From: Acinetobacter phage EAb13
Direction: 5' to 3' (one strand)
Length of the DNA stretch: 64,000 bases
Sequence record: OQ717042.1
Shown: piece by piece, positions 1 through 11,054 of the stretch
Numbering within the stretch: the stretch's first letter is position 1
Layout: the number at the start of each line of letters is the position of its first letter
Position numbers and translations under genes: made by a program
Notes under the pieces: generated by a model
The model's database searches: none
What the model saw: only the letters and a program-made list of their open reading frames with translations
Told to the model about the DNA's origin: nothing

Positions 1-413
1 GTCGCACCCCACCAGCCTTCTTGTAGCAGAAAAAGCTACCTACCCTTCTGGGTGGCCGTGGCTAAGTCATTGAAAATGAAATAGAAATAAAATATTTTAA
101 TTATTTTTATTAGTAGTGTTGTACTACAAATCATGTAGGGATATCATGAGCACATACCAAGCAGACAACGCTTAGTATAGCGATAAGAACGCCACTTATT
201 CGTGCGACTGGATAGTATACCTTTAACCGTAACTATTCGCTAGTCCAAACCATTATTTAAAAACTTGATAAGGTCGTTATCTATATATCTATAGTAATGT
301 CTTATATTCGAGAATCGGACTTAACCACAGTACCGACGGTATAAACATTATGTATATAGTTAATTACCAAAAAAACGGTTTTATACTAGGCTAAGCACTC
401 AACACTCAACAAT

Positions 414-478
414 GGCCGTGGCCGTGGCAATGTCTGACTCATTAACACATTATCAGACAATGCCACTGACACGGCCAC
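414..478. promoter_or_regulatory. Palindromic operator-like element: 14-bp inverted repeat GTGGCAATGTCTGA (424-437) / TCAGACAATGCCAC (453-466), flanked by GGCCGTG motifs, about 55 bp upstream of the first ORF
   Basis: Arms read directly from the sequence, 13/14 complementary with a 15-nt spacer. GGCCGTGGCCGTGGC precedes it and CACGGCCAC follows. Confidence 0.5.
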
Positions 479-532
479 AACTAACATTTAAATGTTATAA
501 CCAAGCCTAACGGCTTTTAGGAGTACACACTC

Positions 533-1120
533 ATGACTACAATCAATGACAAAGTATTAACTACTTTAAACACTCTTTCCAATACTGGAAAGAATGCAAC
601 AATCCTTTTAACCATTGCTAAAGCAATCAATGCAGATAAAGCATTACCCGCATGGGCAGAGGATACACTAGGGCAACAGTTCTTTATTAACGTACTTACA
701 TCATCGGAGCGTACCATTGCTAAGGTATGTAAAGATGATTCATACCATGATTTACGCTCTATTGTGAATACATGGAATAAAGCACAACGCTTGACAGTGG
801 CACAGTATGAGACACTTAAAACGCTTATGACTATCAAAGTATTTCAAAATAATGAAGTATTGAAAGACATTAAAGCACAAGCGGAAATGGTAGCAGCTTT
901 GGCGGTTACTAAAGCCTTAATAGGTTGTCATGATGTAACAATCACGGGCAATGAAGTACAAAAGAAACAAGCCAAAGCAACGGATTATTTCTCTAACCTT
1001 GAAGCATTCAAGGCGGGCATTGATTCAGTAGAAAATGCGGACGATTTAGCGTTAATGATGGAAATCATCCAAGCGCGTTTAAATGCACAAGCACAAGCAC
1101 AACACAAGAAAGTGGCATAA
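533..1120 (+). CDS. hypothetical protein (195 aa)
   Basis: ATG preceded by TAGGAG. Uninterrupted ORF; two hairpin+T-tract terminators follow. Confidence 0.6.
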   Translation: MTTINDKVLTTLNTLSNTGKNATILLTIAKAINADKALPAWAEDTLGQQFFINVLTSSERTIAKVCKDDSYHDLRSIVNTWNKAQRLTVAQYETLKTLMTIKVFQNNEVLKDIKAQAEMVAALAVTKALIGCHDVTITGNEVQKKQAKATDYFSNLEAFKAGIDSVENADDLALMMEIIQARLNAQAQAQHKKVA

Positions 1121-1178
1121 TCAAGGCCACTTTCACGGCCACAAGGTTTTTTATGAAATACGTCCTTTATGTAACCTT

Positions 1179-1208
1179 GGCAGTAGCTATAGGCTACTGC
1201 CTTTTTCA
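1179..1208 (+). terminator. rho-independent terminator (GGCAGTAGC-tatag-GCTACTGCC + TTTTT)
   Basis: Perfect 9-bp stem, 5-nt loop, T-run immediately 3'. Confidence 0.6.
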
Positions 1209-1280
1209 CAACGCTGCCCAGCAAATCCAGCAACGCGACGAGCAAACGCAACGCCAAATATTGAACATTGACCAATAAGA

Positions 1281-1310
1281 AAAGCAAACAAACCAGTTTG
1301 CTTTTTTTAT
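1281..1310 (+). terminator. rho-independent terminator (AAGCAAAC-aaacca-GTTTGCTT + TTTTTT)
   Basis: 8-bp stem followed by a 7-T run. Confidence 0.6.
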
Positions 1311-1379
1311 TGGTCGCGCATTTGGCGGGGCCGTGGCAGTGGCAAAACCCATATAACTGATTTTTTAAGGAATTTTGAA

Positions 1380-1775
1380 ATGACGCACAAAATTTTTGAC
1401 AAATTGCCTGATTGTGATTTACCACAATATCGCACTTACACAAGTCCAGATTTTAATATGAACGCATACATTGCCAAGGTGTTTGACAATAGTCGAGCAT
1501 ACCGAGAAGCTTTTAACTTGCCGTATGATATGAAAGGCAGTTTGGAAAAAATAGCGATTGGAAATGTACGAGTTATAGACTTGCTAAGGATGAACACACG
1601 ACCATTTCTTGATGCTAAATTTTTAAAAGAAAAGGCTAGAGAATTTAAAGCTCAATTAGATGAAGCATGGACTGATCTTGCGAATAATGAAGCTTATAGT
1701 TTTTATTATATAAATCGTGATTCTGCATTAACTCATGATATTTATTTTATTTTAAATACTATTTTAGAGTATTAA
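1380..1775 (+). CDS. hypothetical protein (131 aa)
   Basis: ORF with GGAATTTTGAAATG context. Isolated between terminators and the 1 kb non-coding tract. Confidence 0.5.
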   Translation: MTHKIFDKLPDCDLPQYRTYTSPDFNMNAYIAKVFDNSRAYREAFNLPYDMKGSLEKIAIGNVRVIDLLRMNTRPFLDAKFLKEKAREFKAQLDEAWTDLANNEAYSFYYINRDSALTHDIYFILNTILEY

Positions 1776-1830
1776 TTATAAGGTAAATATTTAGAATAAA
1801 TTTTGAGCATTTATTAACTTTTATTTTAAA

Positions 1831-1867
1831 TTGACACGACTAGAACAAGTTACGTTCGCCGTGTCAA
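1831..1867. repeat. inverted repeat TTGACACG ... CGTGTCAA (8-bp arms, 21-bp spacer)
   Basis: Read directly; the arms look like -35 TTGACA hexamers facing each other. Confidence 0.5.
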
Positions 1868-1920
1868 GGACTTTTTAAAAGTTGATCAAAATTTGTACCG
1901 AAAAAATGTGATTTTTCTGT

Positions 1921-2020
1921 CATTTCGGTCAATTTGGTTAAAAAAGCGTCAAAGTTTATAAAAATGTATTTTGATCGAAATTTGCACGATTTCGGCCAAA
2001 AGTTAGGTTTCGGCCAAAAG
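1921..2020. repeat. iteron-like direct repeats TTTCGG(C/T)CAA (1924-1933, 1990-2002, 2008-2020; the last two are exact 13-mers TTTCGGCCAAAAG)
   Basis: Three copies within 100 bp inside the non-coding tract. Confidence 0.5.
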
Positions 2021-2656
2021 CTGAAATTTTAAGAAGTACCATTTTGCTTGGGTGTAACTTTCTAGGATAACAATTTAAATTTTATTTTTTCATGTGAGAG
2101 AGAAATGAAAAATATAGAATAATAGTATAGCAAATATATAAATGTAACAGAGTATGTAAAATATATGTCTCTTACACAAAAAAGAAAAAATTGCATTTGT
2201 TATCCGAGAAAGTTACATGCTTGAAAAATAAGGGAATCTTAAAAAAGTGGCCCAGAAAGTGTCTGTGAAAATGCAGGAACATGACACACTTTCAGTACCC
2301 GAACCCCAACCTTGTGTATCAAATACGACGTTTTTGCACCATAACAGTGCAAAATAGGGGCTGGGGCCGTGACATAACCCCAACCTGAACCCCAACCCGT
2401 ACCTCATACACCGCCCGAACCCCGAAAAACCCCACGTATTTACGCACCATTTCGCGTATTTAAGCGTTTAACAGCCTAAAACGAATAACCCTACCTGAGC
2501 GCCTTAAAATCGCAAATACGCGATTCTACGCTAAATCACGCACCGAGCGCGAAAAACGACGCAAAACAGAGTCAAAACCCCAAATTTTGACACTGACCCG
2601 AACAAAACCTGAAATTGGCCGCCAAAGTACGCATGAACCCGCCTTTTATTTAGTTT

Positions 2657-2769
2657 AAATAAGAGAGTTAATATTATTATCTCGCGTCAATAATAATATT
2701 AACTCCCTTATTTAAATTAACGACATTGATTAATTTAAATATTAACTTTTCTATTAATACTGACGCGAG
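2657..2769. repeat. nested palindromes: 24-bp arms AAATAAGAGAGTTAATATTATTAT / ATAATAATATTAACTCCCTTATTT around loop CTCGCGTCA, whose reverse complement TGACGCGAG recurs at 2761-2769
   Basis: Arms are 23/24 complementary. The second inverted-repeat pair brackets the right arm and ends 10 bp before the next ATG. Confidence 0.55.
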
Positions 2770-2778
2770 TATTTAAAT

Positions 2779-3078
2779 ATGCAAAACCAAACTATTAGCA
2801 AAACTGCACTTACGACAATGGCTCAAGTTGCAAAAACTGGCTTGATAAATGCCCGTGTATGGTCGCAGTCGCATAAAACGTTTATTTTCCGTGGCGTGAT
2901 TTATCTGGTCATTGGCCTTGGCTTAGTCATAGCGGTTTACTTTATGGGCTTATGTATCATGGGCCATGATCAAAGTGAGCAAGTGCGTTTTTACATGGGC
3001 ATTATTGCTTTTGTGAATCTGGTATACATCACGATTATTTTCGCCATTCAAGCCGTGTTTTTTGGCTCTGACAAATAA
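2779..3078 (+). CDS. small membrane protein (99 aa, two predicted TM helices)
   Basis: Hydrophobic stretches VIYLVIGLGLVIAVYFMGLCIMG and IIAFVNLVYITIIFAI. Confidence 0.55.
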   Translation: MQNQTISKTALTTMAQVAKTGLINARVWSQSHKTFIFRGVIYLVIGLGLVIAVYFMGLCIMGHDQSEQVRFYMGIIAFVNLVYITIIFAIQAVFFGSDK

Positions 3079-3089
3079 GGAGCTGGGCC

Positions 3090-4067
3090 ATGTATGAATT
3101 TAAAAAGAAAAACGTAAATGATGTATTGCAAAAATCCTTGGGTAGCCAGTTACTTTTGGCCCCTAAGCACTACCGTAGAAAATTAGTATTTAGCAATTAC
3201 ACGGTTGAGGACCAAGACGTAATACTGGCGAACGTTGAAAGACGTTTTGAAAGTAAAGTAAACGTTTTGCTTTACAAGTCCTTAAAATTAAAGGTTCATG
3301 CAAACATGCGTGGACCTTGGCAACAAACCAAAGAAATCCAAGTGCTGGACTGGATAATAACTGTTTTAGTAGGCATTTTTGAACATGCAAAAAGTGTAAC
3401 TCCAAATGCTATATATGCCGAAAGAATCAACACGCCTATATACATCAATGGTAAGCGTGATGAGTTGAATACCATTGAAATACATTTACCCGCACAAGCG
3501 GCTATTTGTTCAAACCTAAATTACAATGCGGTTCGTCATTTTTCCCCGTCGCCAAGTGAAATTCCAAATTATACGCCCAGCTTTTTTATGTACCTCATTG
3601 GCATGATGGCCCAGCATTGGGACTATTGGAGTGGCGATTACCATTACCCAATCCCAGCAAGTTATGCTGCATGTGGCAATGGGCTTTTCAACAGCAATTT
3701 GCACGGCAAGATAACTAAGCTTGTGACAAAAGAATTGTCTTTACCATTATGGCTGGCCGAGCAATTGATTGAGGAACAGCAAGTGGCCTTGATTCCGTAT
3801 CTGGATGAGAAAACACGCGAGTTCAAATACAAGAACCATTACAAGTTCAAAAAGATTAACAGTCTTACTGAACGGGGTTTATTGGTTCGTGCACGATTGG
3901 CTGCAACCCAGTTTGGCAACATTGCGTCTAAGGAAATTTCATACTTTGATGGTGTACAGGGTGATTTACGTCTCAAGCTTTTACAGTTCATGATAGACAA
4001 TTTGATTGCCTATCGAACTAATGACGACGCTAAATTAACCGTGAACGGTGAGGATTTAAACCTATGA
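3090..4067 (+). CDS. hypothetical protein (325 aa)
   Basis: AAGGAG RBS 7 nt upstream. First large ORF after the non-coding tract; a role in DNA binding or initiation is speculative. Confidence 0.65.
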   Translation: MYEFKKKNVNDVLQKSLGSQLLLAPKHYRRKLVFSNYTVEDQDVILANVERRFESKVNVLLYKSLKLKVHANMRGPWQQTKEIQVLDWIITVLVGIFEHAKSVTPNAIYAERINTPIYINGKRDELNTIEIHLPAQAAICSNLNYNAVRHFSPSPSEIPNYTPSFFMYLIGMMAQHWDYWSGDYHYPIPASYAACGNGLFNSNLHGKITKLVTKELSLPLWLAEQLIEEQQVALIPYLDEKTREFKYKNHYKFKKINSLTERGLLVRARLAATQFGNIASKEISYFDGVQGDLRLKLLQFMIDNLIAYRTNDDAKLTVNGEDLNL

Positions 4068-4276
4068 TTAAGTTAATTACCGTCTGGGTTTTGACTGTGA
4101 TAGTCACATATAGCGGGACAAACCGAGTGGCTTTAACCAATTTCCAGCACACATATGGTAGCCGTGAAGAATGTATTAAGCGTTCTGAATTTTATAGAAA
4201 ACAGAACGATGGTAGCACTAAGTATTTTGAAACTTATTGTGCCCCTTCACAAATACCAATAGTCGTCAATAAATAG
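4064..4276 (+). CDS. hypothetical small protein with N-terminal hydrophobic segment (70 aa)
   Basis: ATGA start/stop overlap with the upstream gene. Confidence 0.5.
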   Translation: MIKLITVWVLTVIVTYSGTNRVALTNFQHTYGSREECIKRSEFYRKQNDGSTKYFETYCAPSQIPIVVNK

Positions 4277-4283
4277 GTGATGT

Positions 4284-4580
4284 ATGAGCAATCAATTTAG
4301 CATTACATTTGGAACATTTGTAAATATTGAAGGTCTACGTTTATATATCAATGGCCGAAAATGTGATTTTCATGTTGGTGGCCCAGAAGGTGACACTGAC
4401 GTAACTGTTTACAGTGATGATGGCGATGGATATTACATTTCGCTTGATGAAAAGGTTTGGTTTGACAGTAATGCGGCCACGAACAACAGCAGTGGTTACA
4501 TTGTTGACGACAATGGAAAACATATTCATTGTCGGTTCATGGTTGAACAGCCATTAATCATTGGTCAGTATAAAAAATAG
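4284..4580 (+). CDS. hypothetical protein (98 aa)
   Basis: GGTGATGTATG RBS context; packed in the operon. Confidence 0.5.
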   Translation: MSNQFSITFGTFVNIEGLRLYINGRKCDFHVGGPEGDTDVTVYSDDGDGYYISLDEKVWFDSNAATNNSSGYIVDDNGKHIHCRFMVEQPLIIGQYKK

Positions 4581-4585
4581 GTGAT

Positions 4586-4936
4586 GTGATGAAACTCGTA
4601 TCATTGATTGAGCATGGCGGTCACATTATTTATGCGTATGGTGGCCGTGCAACTTTCCAAATCCATGAATCAAAGTGTGAAATCGAAATGAACTTTCCGA
4701 TGGGTGTAAATAACCAAACGATATATTTCGATATTGATGCAGACGTAATTCTTGATGAGGAAAACAAGAATAGCTGCTTTGTGCAAATCAAACATGACGG
4801 TTCACCTAAACAGCCACGATTAACCCGATTAAACTTTTTTCGTGAAATTCCAGTAACGCTTGAAAACCTAGTTGGTGAAATGAATTATCACTACCACCGA
4901 CGCGAGTTGAGAATGGAAAAGGAATCTAAAAAATGA
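4586..4936 (+). CDS. hypothetical protein (116 aa)
   Basis: Same TAGGTGATGTGATG context as its neighbour. Confidence 0.5.
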   Translation: MMKLVSLIEHGGHIIYAYGGRATFQIHESKCEIEMNFPMGVNNQTIYFDIDADVILDEENKNSCFVQIKHDGSPKQPRLTRLNFFREIPVTLENLVGEMNYHYHRRELRMEKESKK

Positions 4937-5415
4937 ATAACTTTGCCGAGCATGATATAAATATGGTTATCAATCCCGAAATGAGCATTCATTTATGGGA
5001 TGTAAAACCAGAAGCTGTGTATATGGCTGGCCGTTCGCCTTTTTCTCCCGACAAACTGGAAGCGACATTCCGTGTCATTTCCCGTGTCCGTGGTCAAGAA
5101 GGTGGCTTTATTGTTGTCATGTGCGATAAGCAAGACGCACCGAAATATGACTATCAATATAGTACAGCGGTTACGCCTGATACTGTTTTGTTGACTAATT
5201 TTCACGTGACAGTTTTTGAAGGCTTGATTTTATATGAAGCTATGTATCGTCAGTATTACAGCTACATATACAAAACCCAGTATCGTTTATTAACGCCACG
5301 TGCTAAGGGTAAAAATCCAGAGCTGCCGATTATTGAAATCCGTCTGGACCCGATTAGTGGCATGACTTATATGTGTGACCATGACCTATCCATTTTAGGT
5401 GATGGGAACAATTAA
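4933..5415 (+). CDS. hypothetical protein (160 aa)
   Basis: ATGA overlap with upstream gene. Confidence 0.55.
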   Translation: MNNFAEHDINMVINPEMSIHLWDVKPEAVYMAGRSPFSPDKLEATFRVISRVRGQEGGFIVVMCDKQDAPKYDYQYSTAVTPDTVLLTNFHVTVFEGLILYEAMYRQYYSYIYKTQYRLLTPRAKGKNPELPIIEIRLDPISGMTYMCDHDLSILGDGNN

Positions 5416-5426
5416 GGAGTTTTAGC

Positions 5427-5720
5427 ATGGCGAGTAAATTACTTGCACGTATTATTGACGTGCAAACTTCACCAGTAGATGGCCGTCAATATATTTCACC
5501 AGTTGGTGGAACATGTGACACAGTAGTTATTGACGGGCGTTGGGGTGACAGTCGCATACAAAGTGAAGTTGAAGCTGCCATAGATAAGCGCTTAAAAAAT
5601 GGCATCCTGAAAGAAAAAGTTGGTTATGCCGTTTACCGCTATGGCGGTGGCTTAAAACTAATGAGTCTCCACATTTTTGACGCTGCAAAGCACGGAAAAA
5701 TGGAACGTCTGTTTTTCTAA
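5427..5720 (+). CDS. hypothetical protein (97 aa)
   Basis: AAGGAG RBS. Confidence 0.55.
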   Translation: MASKLLARIIDVQTSPVDGRQYISPVGGTCDTVVIDGRWGDSRIQSEVEAAIDKRLKNGILKEKVGYAVYRYGGGLKLMSLHIFDAAKHGKMERLFF

Positions 5721-5731
5721 GGTAGGTTTAT

Positions 5732-5968
5732 ATGTCTGGAAAAATTACACCCTCTATTGCTATTTCGGATAGAAAATTAGAGATTGGTAAGAGTTATTCG
5801 AGTGGCATATCTGGTGCCACTATCATTCCTGAAACTAACAAACGAATGGCTCAAGATTGCATTAAATTTCGCAATCGTTCAAATCAACATTATGGAAAAA
5901 ATCAAGCCCTTTATTTCAATTACCTAGATGAAAATTGGGTAGTTACCAAAGTAGATAAAGTGGTTTAA
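5732..5968 (+). CDS. hypothetical protein (78 aa)
   Basis: AGGTAGG RBS. Confidence 0.5.
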   Translation: MSGKITPSIAISDRKLEIGKSYSSGISGATIIPETNKRMAQDCIKFRNRSNQHYGKNQALYFNYLDENWVVTKVDKVV

Positions 5969-5980
5969 GGCAGGTGAAAA

Positions 5981-6208
5981 ATGCGTCAGAAGTATTACGT
6001 TTTCTATAACTGGCATAGTGCAGAAATGCGTATGAAGTATGACGCAGTTCAAGGCATTGTGGCCGACAATTTTTTGGAAGCTGAGCAAGGCTTTTTGGGA
6101 TTTGTTGAGGAATACGGACATGCAGATAAGGGTGATTGTTATGTCACCCAAGTAATGACCGAACGCCAGTACAACAACTTCCTATTGACAAAAGGAACAA
6201 TCCAATGA
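5981..6208 (+). CDS. hypothetical protein (75 aa)
   Basis: AGGCAGGTG RBS. Confidence 0.5.
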   Translation: MRQKYYVFYNWHSAEMRMKYDAVQGIVADNFLEAEQGFLGFVEEYGHADKGDCYVTQVMTERQYNNFLLTKGTIQ

Positions 6209-8959: not shown

Positions 8960-10665
8960 TGGCAGATAAGAATTTACTTATTGAAATTATCTGGGACCCC
9001 TCCCCTATTCCTGTGGATGAAAAAATTGCCCGTTCTACCTTAGTTATTGAACTGCCAATAGGTGTAATGCTTGGCGGTGGAGGTGGCGGTGGTTCAGGCG
9101 GTGACTACATCCCGACTTCTGAAAAAGGCCAAGCTGGTGGGGTGGCTGAATTAGATGACAATGGAAAAGTGCCAGCTTCTCAGTTACCAGCAGCACAAAC
9201 TGGGGACTTTATCCCAAAATCTGAAAAGGGCCAGCCGTTAGGTGTGGCAACCTTGGCAGAGGATGGGCTTGTGGATTGGCGACAATTACCACCGCCACCT
9301 GATTTAAGCGGCTATGTTATGACATGGCAAATTGGTCAGCCAAACGGGGTTGCTGATTTAGACAGCTCTGGCATGATTCCAGCATTTAGAATGCCAGCTT
9401 TGGATTTCATCCCAGCAAGCGCCCTTGGTCAGCCTTGGGGTGTTGCCATGCTGAACAGTGAAGGTAAAGTTTTATCTTCACAACTACCACCTTTCCCAGA
9501 CTTGGATTTTGTACCTATGTCTTTCATAGGGCAAAATGGTGGGGTAGCTGAACTAGACTTCACTGGTAAAGTGCCTGCTTCACAGTTGCCAACGTATGAT
9601 TTTTCTGGATTTGCTTTGAAAAGTTCAGTTGGTCAAGCTGGTGGCATTGCTGCTTTAGACGAGGATGGAAAAGTTCCATCTGATCAATTGCCAGCTTTTC
9701 CAGTGACCAAGGTTAATGGTTATACTGGAAATGTAAACCTAACATATACCGACGTAAATGCGGATATTGCAGGTACAGCAATAACTCAAGCAACCAACGC
9801 AAGAGTAGCGGCAGTTGCTCAAGCACATGCTGAGATTGACCCATTAATTACCAACTTGCAAAATAACAAGCTGGACAAAGTTGATTATATTCAACATTTC
9901 CGAGGGTTATTTACAAGTTATAGTGCTTTAACTACAGCTATTCCTGTAGGTATCAACGGTGATTATGCTCATATCGACAGCGGTGCAGGCTTTGACCGTA
10001 TGCAAGCCATTTGGGATAGTAGCGATTCCAAATGGGTGGTAAATCAGGTAAACGTTCCGCACAATACCGATGAAATGCCAGAAGGTAGTACAAACCTTTA
10101 TCATACATCGGCAAGAGTTCGGGCCGTACCCTTAACTGGGATTGATATACCAACAGCTAGTCGAGACATTACGGCTAACGATACAATTATGACTGCCCTT
10201 GCACAGCTTCAAGCAAATTATAAAGCTTTGCCAGCAGGTGGTACGATTGAAGATGCAACTTGGGTAGCAGCAAGTACAGTAGGTGTAACGGGCGCAAATG
10301 GTGACGCAAACCAAAACTGGTCAGGCATAGAGTTTTGCCGATACAAAGGCTATTTATGGATGCGTGGTTTTTACACAGCAACTGTAGCTTTATCTGCTGG
10401 TAACCGATTATTCACGATTACCAACAACAAATATAAAGTTTTGCAGCCGCAAAATACCCCGAACATTTATGTAGGTTTTTATCAGTATGCTGTCAATTTA
10501 AGAATTTTAACAAATGGTTTGTTTTCAAATATTCAAGTTACTGATGCAACAACCGCTGCTAACTCAGTTCAATACATCCATCAATCTGTAAACGAAAGTG
10601 GAACAGCAAATGCATATCATAAAGTTCCTATGATATGTGTAGGAAAACTTGCCGACCCAACCTAA
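8959..10665 (+). CDS. tail-fibre-like protein with 6-7 tandem Phage_fiber_2-type repeats and an N-terminal poly-Gly tract
   Basis: Repeated units [FY]IP.SEKGQ..GVA.LD..GKVP.SQLP (7 copies) after GGGGGGGSGG. A strong terminator follows. Confidence 0.75.
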   Translation: MADKNLLIEIIWDPSPIPVDEKIARSTLVIELPIGVMLGGGGGGGSGGDYIPTSEKGQAGGVAELDDNGKVPASQLPAAQTGDFIPKSEKGQPLGVATLAEDGLVDWRQLPPPPDLSGYVMTWQIGQPNGVADLDSSGMIPAFRMPALDFIPASALGQPWGVAMLNSEGKVLSSQLPPFPDLDFVPMSFIGQNGGVAELDFTGKVPASQLPTYDFSGFALKSSVGQAGGIAALDEDGKVPSDQLPAFPVTKVNGYTGNVNLTYTDVNADIAGTAITQATNARVAAVAQAHAEIDPLITNLQNNKLDKVDYIQHFRGLFTSYSALTTAIPVGINGDYAHIDSGAGFDRMQAIWDSSDSKWVVNQVNVPHNTDEMPEGSTNLYHTSARVRAVPLTGIDIPTASRDITANDTIMTALAQLQANYKALPAGGTIEDATWVAASTVGVTGANGDANQNWSGIEFCRYKGYLWMRGFYTATVALSAGNRLFTITNNKYKVLQPQNTPNIYVGFYQYAVNLRILTNGLFSNIQVTDATTAANSVQYIHQSVNESGTANAYHKVPMICVGKLADPT

Positions 10666-10685
10666 AAATTGGGTTACTAAAACCA

Positions 10686-10713
10686 AGGACCACCAAAACG
10701 GTGGTCCTTTTAA
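10686..10713 (+). terminator. rho-independent terminator (GGACCACC-aaaac-GGTGGTCC + TTTT)
   Basis: Perfect 8-bp GC-rich stem followed by a T-run. Confidence 0.7.
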
Positions 10714-10733
10714 CAGCTTTAAGGAGCTAAAAA

Positions 10734-11054
10734 ATGGTAAAGACAAAAAGCGATTCACGTCTAAATGATCAGGCAAAGCTGTTAAAGGTTTTACTGAATC
10801 AAGGCGTTTACTTGGTCAATAAATGGCGACCATGTGATAAGCACTTATTAGGTCTAGCCAATAGTTTAAAAAACCAAGGGATTGTCGTCATCACGAAAGA
10901 AGGCCGTACCAATCTGAAAGTACAGCGGAATGTAAAGCCAAAGGTAATGGTTGAAAAACTCGTCAAGAATGAAAAATTCCATGATGTATATCTCCATATG
11001 GTAAATAGTCCACGCAAAGGTACTGTACACAGTAGCTTTGGAATTGAAAATTGA
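10734..11054 (+). CDS. putative winged-helix DNA-binding protein (106 aa)
   Basis: AAGGAG RBS. First gene of a new transcription unit; basic, wHTH-like sequence. Confidence 0.5.
   Translation: MVKTKSDSRLNDQAKLLKVLLNQGVYLVNKWRPCDKHLLGLANSLKNQGIVVITKEGRTNLKVQRNVKPKVMVEKLVKNEKFHDVYLHMVNSPRKGTVHSSFGIEN

Follow-up and report, generated by a model that had tools for sequence, protein, structure and literature searches.

A gene-free tract joining the left terminal repeat of Acinetobacter phage EAb13 to its unique early region: a probable terminus-formation and packaging site and a probable untranslated early-operon leader

The window analysed here, 64,000 nucleotides of the record OQ717042.1, is the left end of the ~82-kb genome of the Acinetobacter baumannii siphophage EAb13 and is 94.9% identical to phage fJoAci04. 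Its first base coincides with the left end assigned by PhageTerm in both fJoAci04 and fJoAci01. The tract of interest occupies positions 1776–2778 and is flanked exclusively by genes on the + strand. On its right side it is bounded by the first early ORF (2779–3078, + strand), encoding a predicted 99-aa membrane protein which is 75–81% identical between clades; a protein search with this sequence returned close relatives only. The flanking proteins are 34–62% identical between phages: the 131-aa neighbour shows 43–62% identity, and for the 325-aa protein the two clades share 34% identity. Pfam and PDB searches with the 325-aa protein gave nothing informative, and its PHROG matches comprised only two families of unknown function. 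The proteins of 195, 41 and 131 aa encoded in the direct terminal repeat (DTR) had no PHROG match and sub-threshold Pfam matches only, and the PDB sequence search with two of these three gave nothing significant. The phage collection contained four relatives only, at near and distant DNA search sensitivity, and scans of IMG/VR for relatives of the 325-aa protein, for the invariant palindrome and for the terminus core produced no matches.

The longest ORF within positions 1776–2778 comprises 64 aa on the minus strand, and the others range from 32 to 44 aa. The window clade and the divergent relatives L011, L014 and L015 have no conserved ORF in common here, which bears out the statement of an earlier note on this DNA, made from sequence alone, that no credible ORF is present. 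The comparison with related phages that the note had proposed as a check gave the same result, with a gene-free gap of 0.8–1.06 kb in every relative compared. The 64-kb window has 18 local inverted repeats of 16 nt or more, and seven of them fall within this 1-kb tract. The repeats and palindromes described earlier are real and far above chance expectation; the note had, however, taken the tract for a single element and overlooked the boundary between repeat and unique DNA. The tract is composed of several elements, not one. Its AT-rich composition and its number of consensus promoter-like sites, no higher than in shuffled sequences (10 vs. 13.6 ± 4.3), would suit an ordinary intergenic promoter spacer with repeats that are chance or neutral debris. 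This explanation is scarcely credible and is already contradicted by the conservation data: the palindromes exceed those in all shuffles, conservation of the core blocks far exceeds that of the flanking genes, and both spacing and structure are maintained across deep lineages, as is the gene-free gap itself.

The right end of the terminal repeat maps inside the tract. In fJoAci04, the repeat at positions 1–2182 is duplicated exactly at 79465–81646, i.e., it occupies both genome ends. The PhageTerm right borders of the DTR in fJoAci04 (2182) and fJoAci01 (2238) both align to window positions 2177|2178 (...TCTCTTACAC|AAAAAAG), and the published DTR length of EAb13 is 2,177 bp. Because the window ends at 64 kb, before the right-end copy, the boundary was transferred from the relatives and from the equal published length. 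The DTR measures 2.2 kb, or 2.7% of the genome, and the last 400 bp of its left copy (1776–2177 of window positions 1–2177) are gene-free, with the same sequence also present at the right genome end. The mapping by PhageTerm of a genome terminus to this position in fJoAci04, fJoAci01 and EAb13 supports the earlier suggestion of a packaging signal.

The boundary is enclosed by a large imperfect palindrome (2041–2229), which the earlier note had also missed. Its 50-nt arms are 78% complementary, the self-complementarity score is 80 compared with 27.9 ± 4.7 in shuffles (maximum 46), and the DNA folding z-score is −4.8. The GC content of positions 2001–2200 is 25.5%. The palindrome represents the best-conserved DNA of the region: in the five-phage alignment, 88–92% of columns were invariant in five of the seven 25-nt bins of positions 2032–2230, and the corresponding range for positions 2668–2717 together with most bins of 2032–2230 was 88–96%.

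Three TGTAAC half-sites are arranged within the palindrome: an outer left site (TGTAACTTTCT, 2053–2058, + strand), a central site (2143–2148, + strand), which forms the left member of an inner dyad, and a right site (2212–2217, − strand, reading GTTACA on the + strand), which is its partner. The order +,+,− was found in the lineages compared, with L015/L016 as exceptions. An inner-pair span of exactly 75 bp is shared by the window clade, L011, L014, L017 and L020, with 76 bp in Mystique, whereas the outer spacing varies (90, 79 or 59 bp). Both the triad and the inner distance of 75 bp are retained even where identity of the repeat-encoded protein has fallen to ~41%. Measured from the centre of the inner dyad (2180.0), the DTR end is displaced 2.5 nt to the left; the boundary and dyad centre are at 2182 and 2185 in fJoAci04 and at 2238 and 2241 in fJoAci01, and the cut is 2.5 nt off the centre in three independently analysed phages. 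A consistent dyad was not found around the left cut. No motif common to the left and right repeat borders rose above chance, so that one rule governing recognition at both cuts is not apparent. The central TGTAAC is overlapped by a leftward sigma-70-like site, TTTACA-16-TATATT (2133–2160, − strand), which is the best consensus match of the region (10/12) and is identified by that match only. Both fJoAci01 and L011 have it at the corresponding position, and L017 has a weaker site close by.

On the repeat side of the boundary, the tract carries a hairpin and several short repeats. The inverted TTGACACG pair reported earlier is present, with TTGACACG at 1831 (+ strand) and CGTGTCAA at 1860–1867, and three of the four TTGACRCG matches of the 64-kb window fall within the tract. 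The pair forms the hairpin TTGACACGRC...GCCGTGTCAA (1831–1867, + strand), which follows the last repeat-encoded gene and is itself followed, 4 nt downstream, by a run of five T residues. The RNA z-score of this hairpin was −3.0 in the window and −4.5 in fJoAci01, and an A-to-G change in its left arm in clade 2 gives a G.U pair on the + strand. It may serve as a terminator for the repeat-encoded genes. Further to the right, two direct copies of TTGATCRAAATTTGYAC (family D20; 1882–1898 and 1971–1987, + strand) are conserved in five phages. The three TTTCGGYCAA repeats noted before are exact (TTTCGGTCAA at 1923–1932, TTTCGGCCAA at 1990–1999 and again at 2008–2017, all on the + strand), and only one further exact copy exists in the 64-kb window; a degenerate inverted copy of TTTCGGTCAA, GTACCGAAA, is located at 1897–1905. 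In divergent relatives, other T-tract/GC-core repeats (TTTTGCC..., GCCAGTTTTG...) take the place of TTTCGGYCAA.

Such repeats raise the question of a replication origin, in which an AT-rich stretch between short repeats and palindromes would unwind and firing would depend on the phage primase-helicase. Recurring motifs and a palindrome core rich in A and T do occur, a Prim-Pol/DUF5906 primase-helicase gene is found about 0.4–0.9 kb upstream of the start of the repeat when the genome is read as a circle or concatemer, and a G-rich minus-strand transcript of positions 2290–2640 could in principle form a priming R-loop. We nevertheless consider an origin unlikely. DnaA boxes (TTWTNCACA) are absent from 1776–2778, with six in the 64-kb window compared with 14.3 expected. 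With a length of 10 nt and uneven spacings of 67 and 18 nt, the repeats are unlike iterons of 17–22 bp, and other lineages carry different motifs in their stead. Cumulative GC skew, a check proposed in the note, rises over 3–51 kb and falls over 51–75 kb; it merely mirrors gene orientation and is therefore uninformative on the origin. The proposal that the neighbouring 325-aa protein is an initiator is disfavoured, since this protein is hypervariable between clades and lacks informative matches, while the putative iterons are conserved and nearly identical. Neither regular repeats of 17–22 bp nor a co-varying adjacent initiator gene was found.

By similarity, the large terminase of EAb13 groups with long-terminal-repeat packagers, namely JWF and Seuss, followed by Herelleviridae. 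In tblastn comparisons it was 36–40% identical to JWF, Seuss and related phages and 22–25% identical to Bacillus and Mammaliicoccus myophages; 627 records matched it, most of them Staphylococcus, Bacillus, Enterococcus or Listeria phages. The annotation shows no small terminase gene beside the large terminase gene.

Immediately outside the repeat, a hexamer-periodic array GTGGCC CAGAAA GTGTCT GTGAAA occupies positions 2247–2272 (+ strand). In stretches of 220 nt, the motif GTGNC is found 2–8 times to the right of the repeat and, in relatives, GNCAC 5–11 times to its left, against a background of about 0.7, which suggests that both borders of the unique DNA carry mirror-image arrays. The period-6 signal in the window is modest (identity of 0.32–0.34 at lags 6, 12, 18 and 24 vs. 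0.27 expected) and not exceptional among all windows; the arrays are therefore reported as orientation-biased enrichment only. The 10-mer TCTGGGCCAC/GTGGCCCAGA becomes CACGGCCAC/GTGGCCGTG in the second clade. A comparison may be drawn with the repeat borders of Twort-like phages and other Herelleviridae, which have a distantly related large terminase. Oppositely oriented GNCAC/GTGNC arrays are situated about 65 bp outside both borders here. These are arrays of degenerate hexamers, whereas the Twort-like borders have one exact 12-mer; the repeats measure 2.2 kb here and about 8 kb there, and morphology and host phylum differ as well.

Beyond the array lies an untranslated segment (2290–2640, + strand) that is A/C-rich and skewed towards C over G (A 34%, C 32%, G 17%, T 18%). 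Its positions 2371–2570 constitute the most C-over-G-skewed 200-nt window of the 64 kb (C 34.5%, G 14.5%). The observed/expected ratio of CpG is 1.51 in the segment, compared with 0.71 for the window, and CCCCAACC (at 2304, 2378 and 2390) and CCCGAACC (at 2298 and 2414) recur within it. The earlier note had recognised both the segment and these repeated motifs; its start is nearer 2290 than 2340, and the description "nearly G-free outside CpG" was overstated, as 28 of the 58 G residues fall within CpG. The C/G ratio is 1.7–2.2 in all eight aligned relatives, with poorly conserved sequence, and the segment also contains the most C-skewed 200-nt window of the respective locus in L011, L014, L016 and L017. 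CpG enrichment is not conserved in relatives. The segment is not structure-free: it has local hairpins and a folding z-score of −3.6, with a core (2376–2435) that is mostly unpaired in the centroid structure. Among the hairpins, TTTGCAC-N7-GTGCAAA (2332–2354, + strand) has an invariant stem and a loop that varies between clades.

From these features we infer that positions 2290–2640 are part of a + strand leader whose positions 2376–2435 could form a rut-like core for the loading of Rho. Resemblance to Rho-dependent terminators would lie in the C-rich, G-poor and untranslated RNA of several hundred nucleotides on the + strand, and in a skew conserved without sequence conservation; the difference lies in the local hairpins and in folding that is better than in shuffles. 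Consensus scans of the region revealed no convincing conserved rightward promoter. The site TTGACA-17-TGAAAT at 2588–2616 was rejected as a promoter, being clade-specific and having a −10 hexamer without A at position 2.

The segment is followed by the longest local inverted repeat of the 64-kb window, a long hairpin at 2650–2720 (+ strand), which is single and not one of a series. Its 30 predicted pairs (14 + 16 around an A.C mismatch) enclose a 9-nt loop, and 58 nt separate its end from the first early gene downstream. The palindrome reported earlier is real, though its arms are 31 nt long (2650–2680 and 2690–2720, 94% complementary) instead of 24 nt. The nested 9-bp inverted repeat was also recovered: the loop CTCGCGTCA is complementary to TGACGCGAG at 2761–2769 (+ strand), which occupies the Shine-Dalgarno place and ends 9 nt before the ATG at 2779. 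TGACGCGAG is conserved in the two clades of the window only and is absent in L011–L015. The folding z-score of positions 2640–2800 was −5.5.

Within the two clades of the window, the sequence of the hairpin is 96% invariant. Stems of 30–35 bp with a different sequence occupy the same place in L011, L014 and L015/L016, and in comparisons between lineages both partners differ in 9–14 of about 25 aligned pairs. According to these alignments, compensatory changes have preserved the hairpin in three other lineages of Acinetobacter type; in L017, the most distant lineage, the long hairpin is absent and a 9-bp stem only was found. RNA of the + strand hairpin is more stable than that of the − strand in L014 and L015, and in the window clade the balance tips slightly towards the − strand RNA (−30.6 vs. 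−28.1 kcal/mol for the + strand). The comparison of G.U with A.C mismatches is suggestive of the + strand in L011, L014 and L015 but is contradicted by the one conserved A.C mismatch of the window clade, so that the functional strand appears ambiguous.

The earlier proposal of a structured RNA locus holds for the 2650–2720 hairpin, through its compensatory changes, and not beyond it. A discrete non-coding RNA gene (sRNA or structured RNA) in positions 2240–2780 would agree with those changes, with folding beyond that of shuffles in both 2290–2640 and 2640–2800, and with the conserved small hairpin at 2332–2354. It is nonetheless very unlikely: outside the hairpins, base composition alone is conserved in this interval, without a common sequence or fold, and no promoter/terminator pair delimiting an RNA gene was found. 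The Rfam search gave no match at gathering score, only spurious sub-threshold miRNA-like matches to the palindromes.

The left end of phage T7 offers a comparison for this part of the tract. It reportedly contains an untranslated region with the RNase III site R0.3 before the first early gene. The likeness consists of a long untranslated stretch between the terminal repeat and the first early gene, and of a long hairpin a few tens of nucleotides upstream of that gene. EAb13 differs in having no T7-like promoters or RNA polymerase and one long hairpin in 64 kb, and its hairpin is, by analogy, only a candidate for RNase III processing.

Taken together, the tract is probably the gene-free junction between the left long DTR and the unique early region, consisting of a terminus-formation and packaging site and, after it, an untranslated early-operon leader. 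The first half, about 1880–2236, would be the terminus-formation and packaging region, and it is within this half that the DNA end maps in relatives. A symmetric complex of terminase or an accessory nuclease may assemble on two TGTAAC half-sites of concatemeric DNA, and a cut near the dyad centre would then generate the right genome end. The phased TTTCGGYCAA and TTGATC repeats just inside the DTR could act as auxiliary binding or bending sites in a cosB-like manner. The second half, about 2240–2778, would be the leader. Its C-rich, G-poor stretch could load Rho on any untranslated + strand transcript, whereby the early genes would be insulated or attenuated from transcription of the repeat-encoded genes, and the 31-bp-stem hairpin would function on RNA as an RNase III-type processing site, a stability element or a translation-control element. 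Leader and hairpin mark the likely place at which the early programme is gated.

The cos site of phage lambda combines a rotationally symmetric cosN nicking site of about 22 bp with the terminase-binding repeats of cosB. By analogy only, the junction in EAb13 shares with it a cut near the centre of a dyad-symmetric site, and short repeated sites of mixed orientation within about 250 bp on one side. It differs in that the PhageTerm annotations indicate long direct terminal repeats instead of cohesive ends, that the half-sites are 75 bp apart, and that no small terminase or IHF sites were identified. How terminases recognise and duplicate long DTRs is poorly understood beyond T7 and T5, and a deeply conserved symmetric site at the repeat end is a concrete target for packaging work. 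It also provides a rule for placing genome ends in assemblies of this group, in which TCUP2199 and Mystique were deposited permuted. EAb13, TCUP2199, Mystique and the fJoAci phages are broad-host-range A. baumannii phages and candidates for therapy.

The tract is no new kind of element, and its closest analogue is best read as Repeat Region 3 of phage T5, by architecture and not by homology. Repeat Region 3 is a 1.2-kb, untranslated, repeat-laden region, mostly within the terminal repeat, that is better conserved than neighbouring ORFs. The T5 injection stop signal (iss) is part of a large untranslated, repeat-containing region which closes the terminal repeat on its right and extends beyond it into unique DNA. 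In T5 (NC_005859), a gene-free gap of 1.78 kb (9158–10935) extends across the repeat end at 10219, with about 1.06 kb inside and 0.72 kb outside the repeat; in EAb13, the gap at 1776–2778 straddles position 2177, with 400 bp inside and 600 bp outside. Both gaps are dense in repeats, direct as well as inverted, and in palindromes, and in both an inverted repeat has one arm ending at the boundary.

This setting invites the reading of the tract as a T5-type injection stop, in which the repeat would enter first and the cluster of repeats and palindromes would halt transfer until pre-early proteins were made. The genome layout is also T5-like, with a terminal repeat that encodes a few small proteins without assigned function, then early and replication genes on the + strand (polymerase, SbcCD-like and Nrd genes) and late genes on the − strand. 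As in T5, an untranslated repeat region better conserved than neighbouring ORFs straddles the repeat end, and a strand-asymmetric G/C segment adjoins it. We regard an injection stop as improbable all the same. Paired DnaA boxes, at conserved positions, are the feature common to all 25 T5-like iss regions, whereas the tract has no DnaA box. There is no sequence similarity to the T5 region, the local alignment to the T5 border giving a score of 21 compared with a null of 18.7 ± 2.3. As the repeat-encoded proteins lack PHROG and significant Pfam matches, no A1- or A2-like protein was detected in the repeat. The repeat, which measures 10.2 kb in T5, accounts for a small share of the EAb13 genome, and two-step DNA transfer has, to our knowledge, been described in T5-like phages only.

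A more far-reaching reading is rather unlikely, though we give it slightly more weight than the injection stop or the origin. It would treat the TGTAAC-75 bp-GTTACA dyad together with the mirror hexamer arrays as an undescribed end-recognition rule for long DTRs, and also the repeat cluster, C-rich tract and hairpin as a T5-like, DnaA-independent checkpoint. Such a checkpoint may separate expression of the repeat-encoded genes from that of the rest of the genome, either as a pause in DNA entry or as a Rho-gated transcriptional barrier. The strand asymmetry of the two phages has opposite polarity on opposite sides of the boundary: the GC skew of T5 reaches +0.69 just inside the repeat end, whereas that of EAb13 is C-rich just outside it.

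The gene-free tract at 1776-2778 is a real, strongly selected and composite non-coding region, and it is a further example of an already known phage genome feature. Its core would be the end-formation site of the direct terminal repeat, with an untranslated early leader following it. This composite explanation is probable, and the assignment of the terminus, taken alone, is highly probable. The new anatomical details are a dyad whose 75-bp span is fixed and whose cut falls close to the centre, mirrored hexamer arrays, a C-rich leader conserved in composition and a co-varying giant hairpin.

Over window positions 1-6000, Acinetobacter phage fJoAci04 (81.6 kb) is 94.9% identical, and fJoAci01, vB_AbaS_TCUP2199 and Mystique are 81-88% identical. 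Long terminal repeats defined by PhageTerm are annotated in the fJoAci04 (2182 bp) and fJoAci01 (2238 bp) records, with an exact copy at each genome end in fJoAci04. The first window bases, GTCGCACCC..., are the left ends of both phages, and their repeat end, ...TCTCTTACAC/AAAAAAG (the slash marks the border), falls at window 2177/2178; terminus mapping in these relatives thus places a DNA end there. The EAb13 genome announcement gives 82,411 bp, one tRNA-Asn (present in the window at 32905-32980) and a direct terminal repeat length of exactly 2,177 bp. The genome begins with the repeat and its few small genes, continues with early and replication genes on the plus strand and then late genes on the minus strand, and has a Prim-Pol/DUF5906 primase gene directly before the right repeat, a layout resembling that of T5. 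The TCUP2199 (ON323491) and Mystique (PQ438181) records are permuted with a single repeat copy, the former beginning at window position 146 and the latter deposited as circular. The conserved borders ...ACACT/GTCGCACCC and ...TTACAC/AAAAAAG allow the true ends of both to be set.

Every feature that the earlier note listed in the tract was found again, with three corrections: the palindrome arms are 31 nt long instead of 24; the C-rich segment begins near 2290 rather than 2340; and its description as nearly G-free outside CpG was overstated, as CpG holds only 28 of its 58 G. These features are beyond chance. The fold of 2640-2800 has a z-score of −5.5, no other local inverted repeat in the 64 kb is as long as the long hairpin (2650-2720, plus strand), 7 of the 18 local inverted repeats of at least 16 nt fall within this 1 kb, and 2371-2570 has the strongest C-over-G skew among all 200-nt windows of the 64 kb. 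The largest feature had been missed: an imperfect palindrome at 2041-2229 that encloses the repeat boundary (self-complement score 80; shuffles 27.9 ± 4.7, maximum 46; DNA folding z-score −4.8).

Metagenomic relatives were collected through the repeat-encoded 195-aa protein (L011-L015, 73-76% identity), and a profile search then reached relatives at about 41% (L016, L017-L020). Gene order is the same in all of them, and every relative found with this protein has, at this place, a stretch of 0.8-1.06 kb free of genes. None of the ORFs in that stretch is conserved across lineages. In a five-phage alignment, invariant columns reach 88-92% in five of seven 25-nt bins over 2032-2230 and 96% over 2668-2717, but only 28-52% over 2528-2642. 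The flanking proteins are less conserved (131-aa, 43-62% identity; 325-aa, 34%), so the non-coding cores are more constrained than the genes. Both neighbouring genes (1380-1775 and 3090-4067) are hypervariable, at 62% against fJoAci04 for the former and 34% between clades for the latter, and the non-coding DNA between them is conserved up to 96-100%. The pattern looks like mosaic replacement of genes on either side of a constant cis-acting core.

Across lineages the terminus core persists and carries three TGTAAC motifs ordered +,+,−, L015 and L016 deviating. The inner TGTAAC...GTTACA span (2143-2148 to 2212-2217) is exactly 75 bp in the window clade, L011, L014, L017 and L020 and 76 bp in Mystique; the outer TGTAAC spacing varies (90, 79 or 59 bp). 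The repeat end lies 2.5 nt leftward of the inner dyad centre at 2180.0, and the offset is identical in fJoAci04 (2182 vs. 2185) and fJoAci01 (2238 vs. 2241). We infer two half-sites read by a symmetric terminase or nuclease complex. The left border has an invariant context, TTTTTAGAACGGAGAT-N9-10-/GTCGCA, and its similarity to the right border is not significant. Each border has a degenerate hexamer array directly outside it, the two being opposite in orientation: GNCAC occurs 5-11 times per 220 nt left of the repeat and GTGNC 2-8 times per 220 nt right of it (background about 0.7). About 65 bp outside both borders, an inverted-orientation 10-mer changes in step between clades (TCTGGGCCAC and GTGGCCCAGA in one, CACGGCCAC and GTGGCCGTG in the other).

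To the left of the core, short phased repeats persist with lineage-specific sequence; to the right, the C>G bias persists (C/G ratio 1.7-2.2, up to 3.2 in L017), and the C-rich segment is the most C-skewed 200-nt window at each locus. This conservation of C bias without sequence conservation argues for selection on composition. Since all neighbouring genes are on the plus strand, a transcript entering 2240-2778 would be untranslated and C-rich. Rho loads on such RNA; a specific role for it here is a tentative proposal. The segment is not structure-free (folding z-score −3.6), and consensus scans found no conserved rightward promoter.

In Acinetobacter-type lineages only, a hairpin with a 30-35-bp stem stands directly upstream of the first early gene. 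Its arms vary in sequence, with 9-14 of about 25 aligned pairs changed on both sides. The duplex is of RNase III size and lies 27-58 nt ahead of that gene; in T7, R0.3 is similarly placed. A specific role for RNase III is only tentatively proposed. The more favoured RNA strand is plus in L014 and L015, neither in L011 and slightly minus in the window clade. A stretch of 9 nt at the ribosome-binding position is complementary to the loop, a match confined to the window's two clades that suggests added translational control.

The nearest analogue is T5 Repeat Region 3/iss, which is 1.2 kb long, untranslated, repeat-laden and better conserved than the neighbouring ORFs, and which lies mainly within the terminal repeat and runs over into unique DNA. 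In NC_005859, the gene-free gap 9158-10935 spans the repeat end at 10219; the T5 border likewise has a strong strand-asymmetric G/C segment and an inverted-repeat arm ending at it. No homology to the T5 region was found, the tract has no DnaA boxes, and neither A1 nor A2 was detected among the repeat-encoded proteins; the tract therefore resembles the T5 region in construction, and perhaps in the way it works, and is not a family member. As for a replication origin, positive evidence goes no further than generic features, and cumulative GC skew, one of the checks proposed in the earlier note, only mirrors gene orientation.

Close relatives differ in how many GNCAC-type hexamers and 12- or 24-nt repeats they carry (L003 3130-3465, L009, L011, L014, L015), in unique DNA adjoining the right terminal repeat on its left; in its behaviour the array thus resembles a fast-evolving minisatellite. 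TCUP2199 has 12 nt extra, and L015 has four 24-nt units (TAGACACAGCC...). The large terminase subunit of L011 (1-1382) and L014 (1-1315) has 888-946 aa, against 577-581 aa in the window's group, and matches LAGLIDADG_3 and GpA_ATPase, as if an intein or a homing endonuclease had been inserted.

Within the repeat, tandem hexamers of GTGGCC/GTGGCA/GTGTCA type fill every intergenic spacer (52-66, 413-477, 1125-1145, 1329-1344) and are possible operators or promoter elements for the genes that the repeat encodes; the second stretch includes a 25-nt inverted repeat (413-437/453-477). GGCCGTGGC occurs four times in the 64 kb, each time within the repeat. After the 41-aa ORF, a 20-bp-stem hairpin with a T-run at 1270-1315 (GACCAATAAGAAAAGCAAAC/GTTTGCTTTTTTTATTGGTC) is likely a bidirectional intrinsic terminator. 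The central non-coding region 33080-34010 adjoins tRNA-Asn, the only Rfam match there, and contains tRNA-like 3' halves (GGTTCGA.TCC...CCCA) and three long inverted-repeat pairs (33141-33226, 33370-33577, 33859-34003) starting with CCAATATTTA and ending with TAAATGTTGG. One pair is called 'tRNA-Pyl(cta)' by ARAGORN; decayed or interrupted tRNA genes, or else an unknown RNA, could account for these elements.
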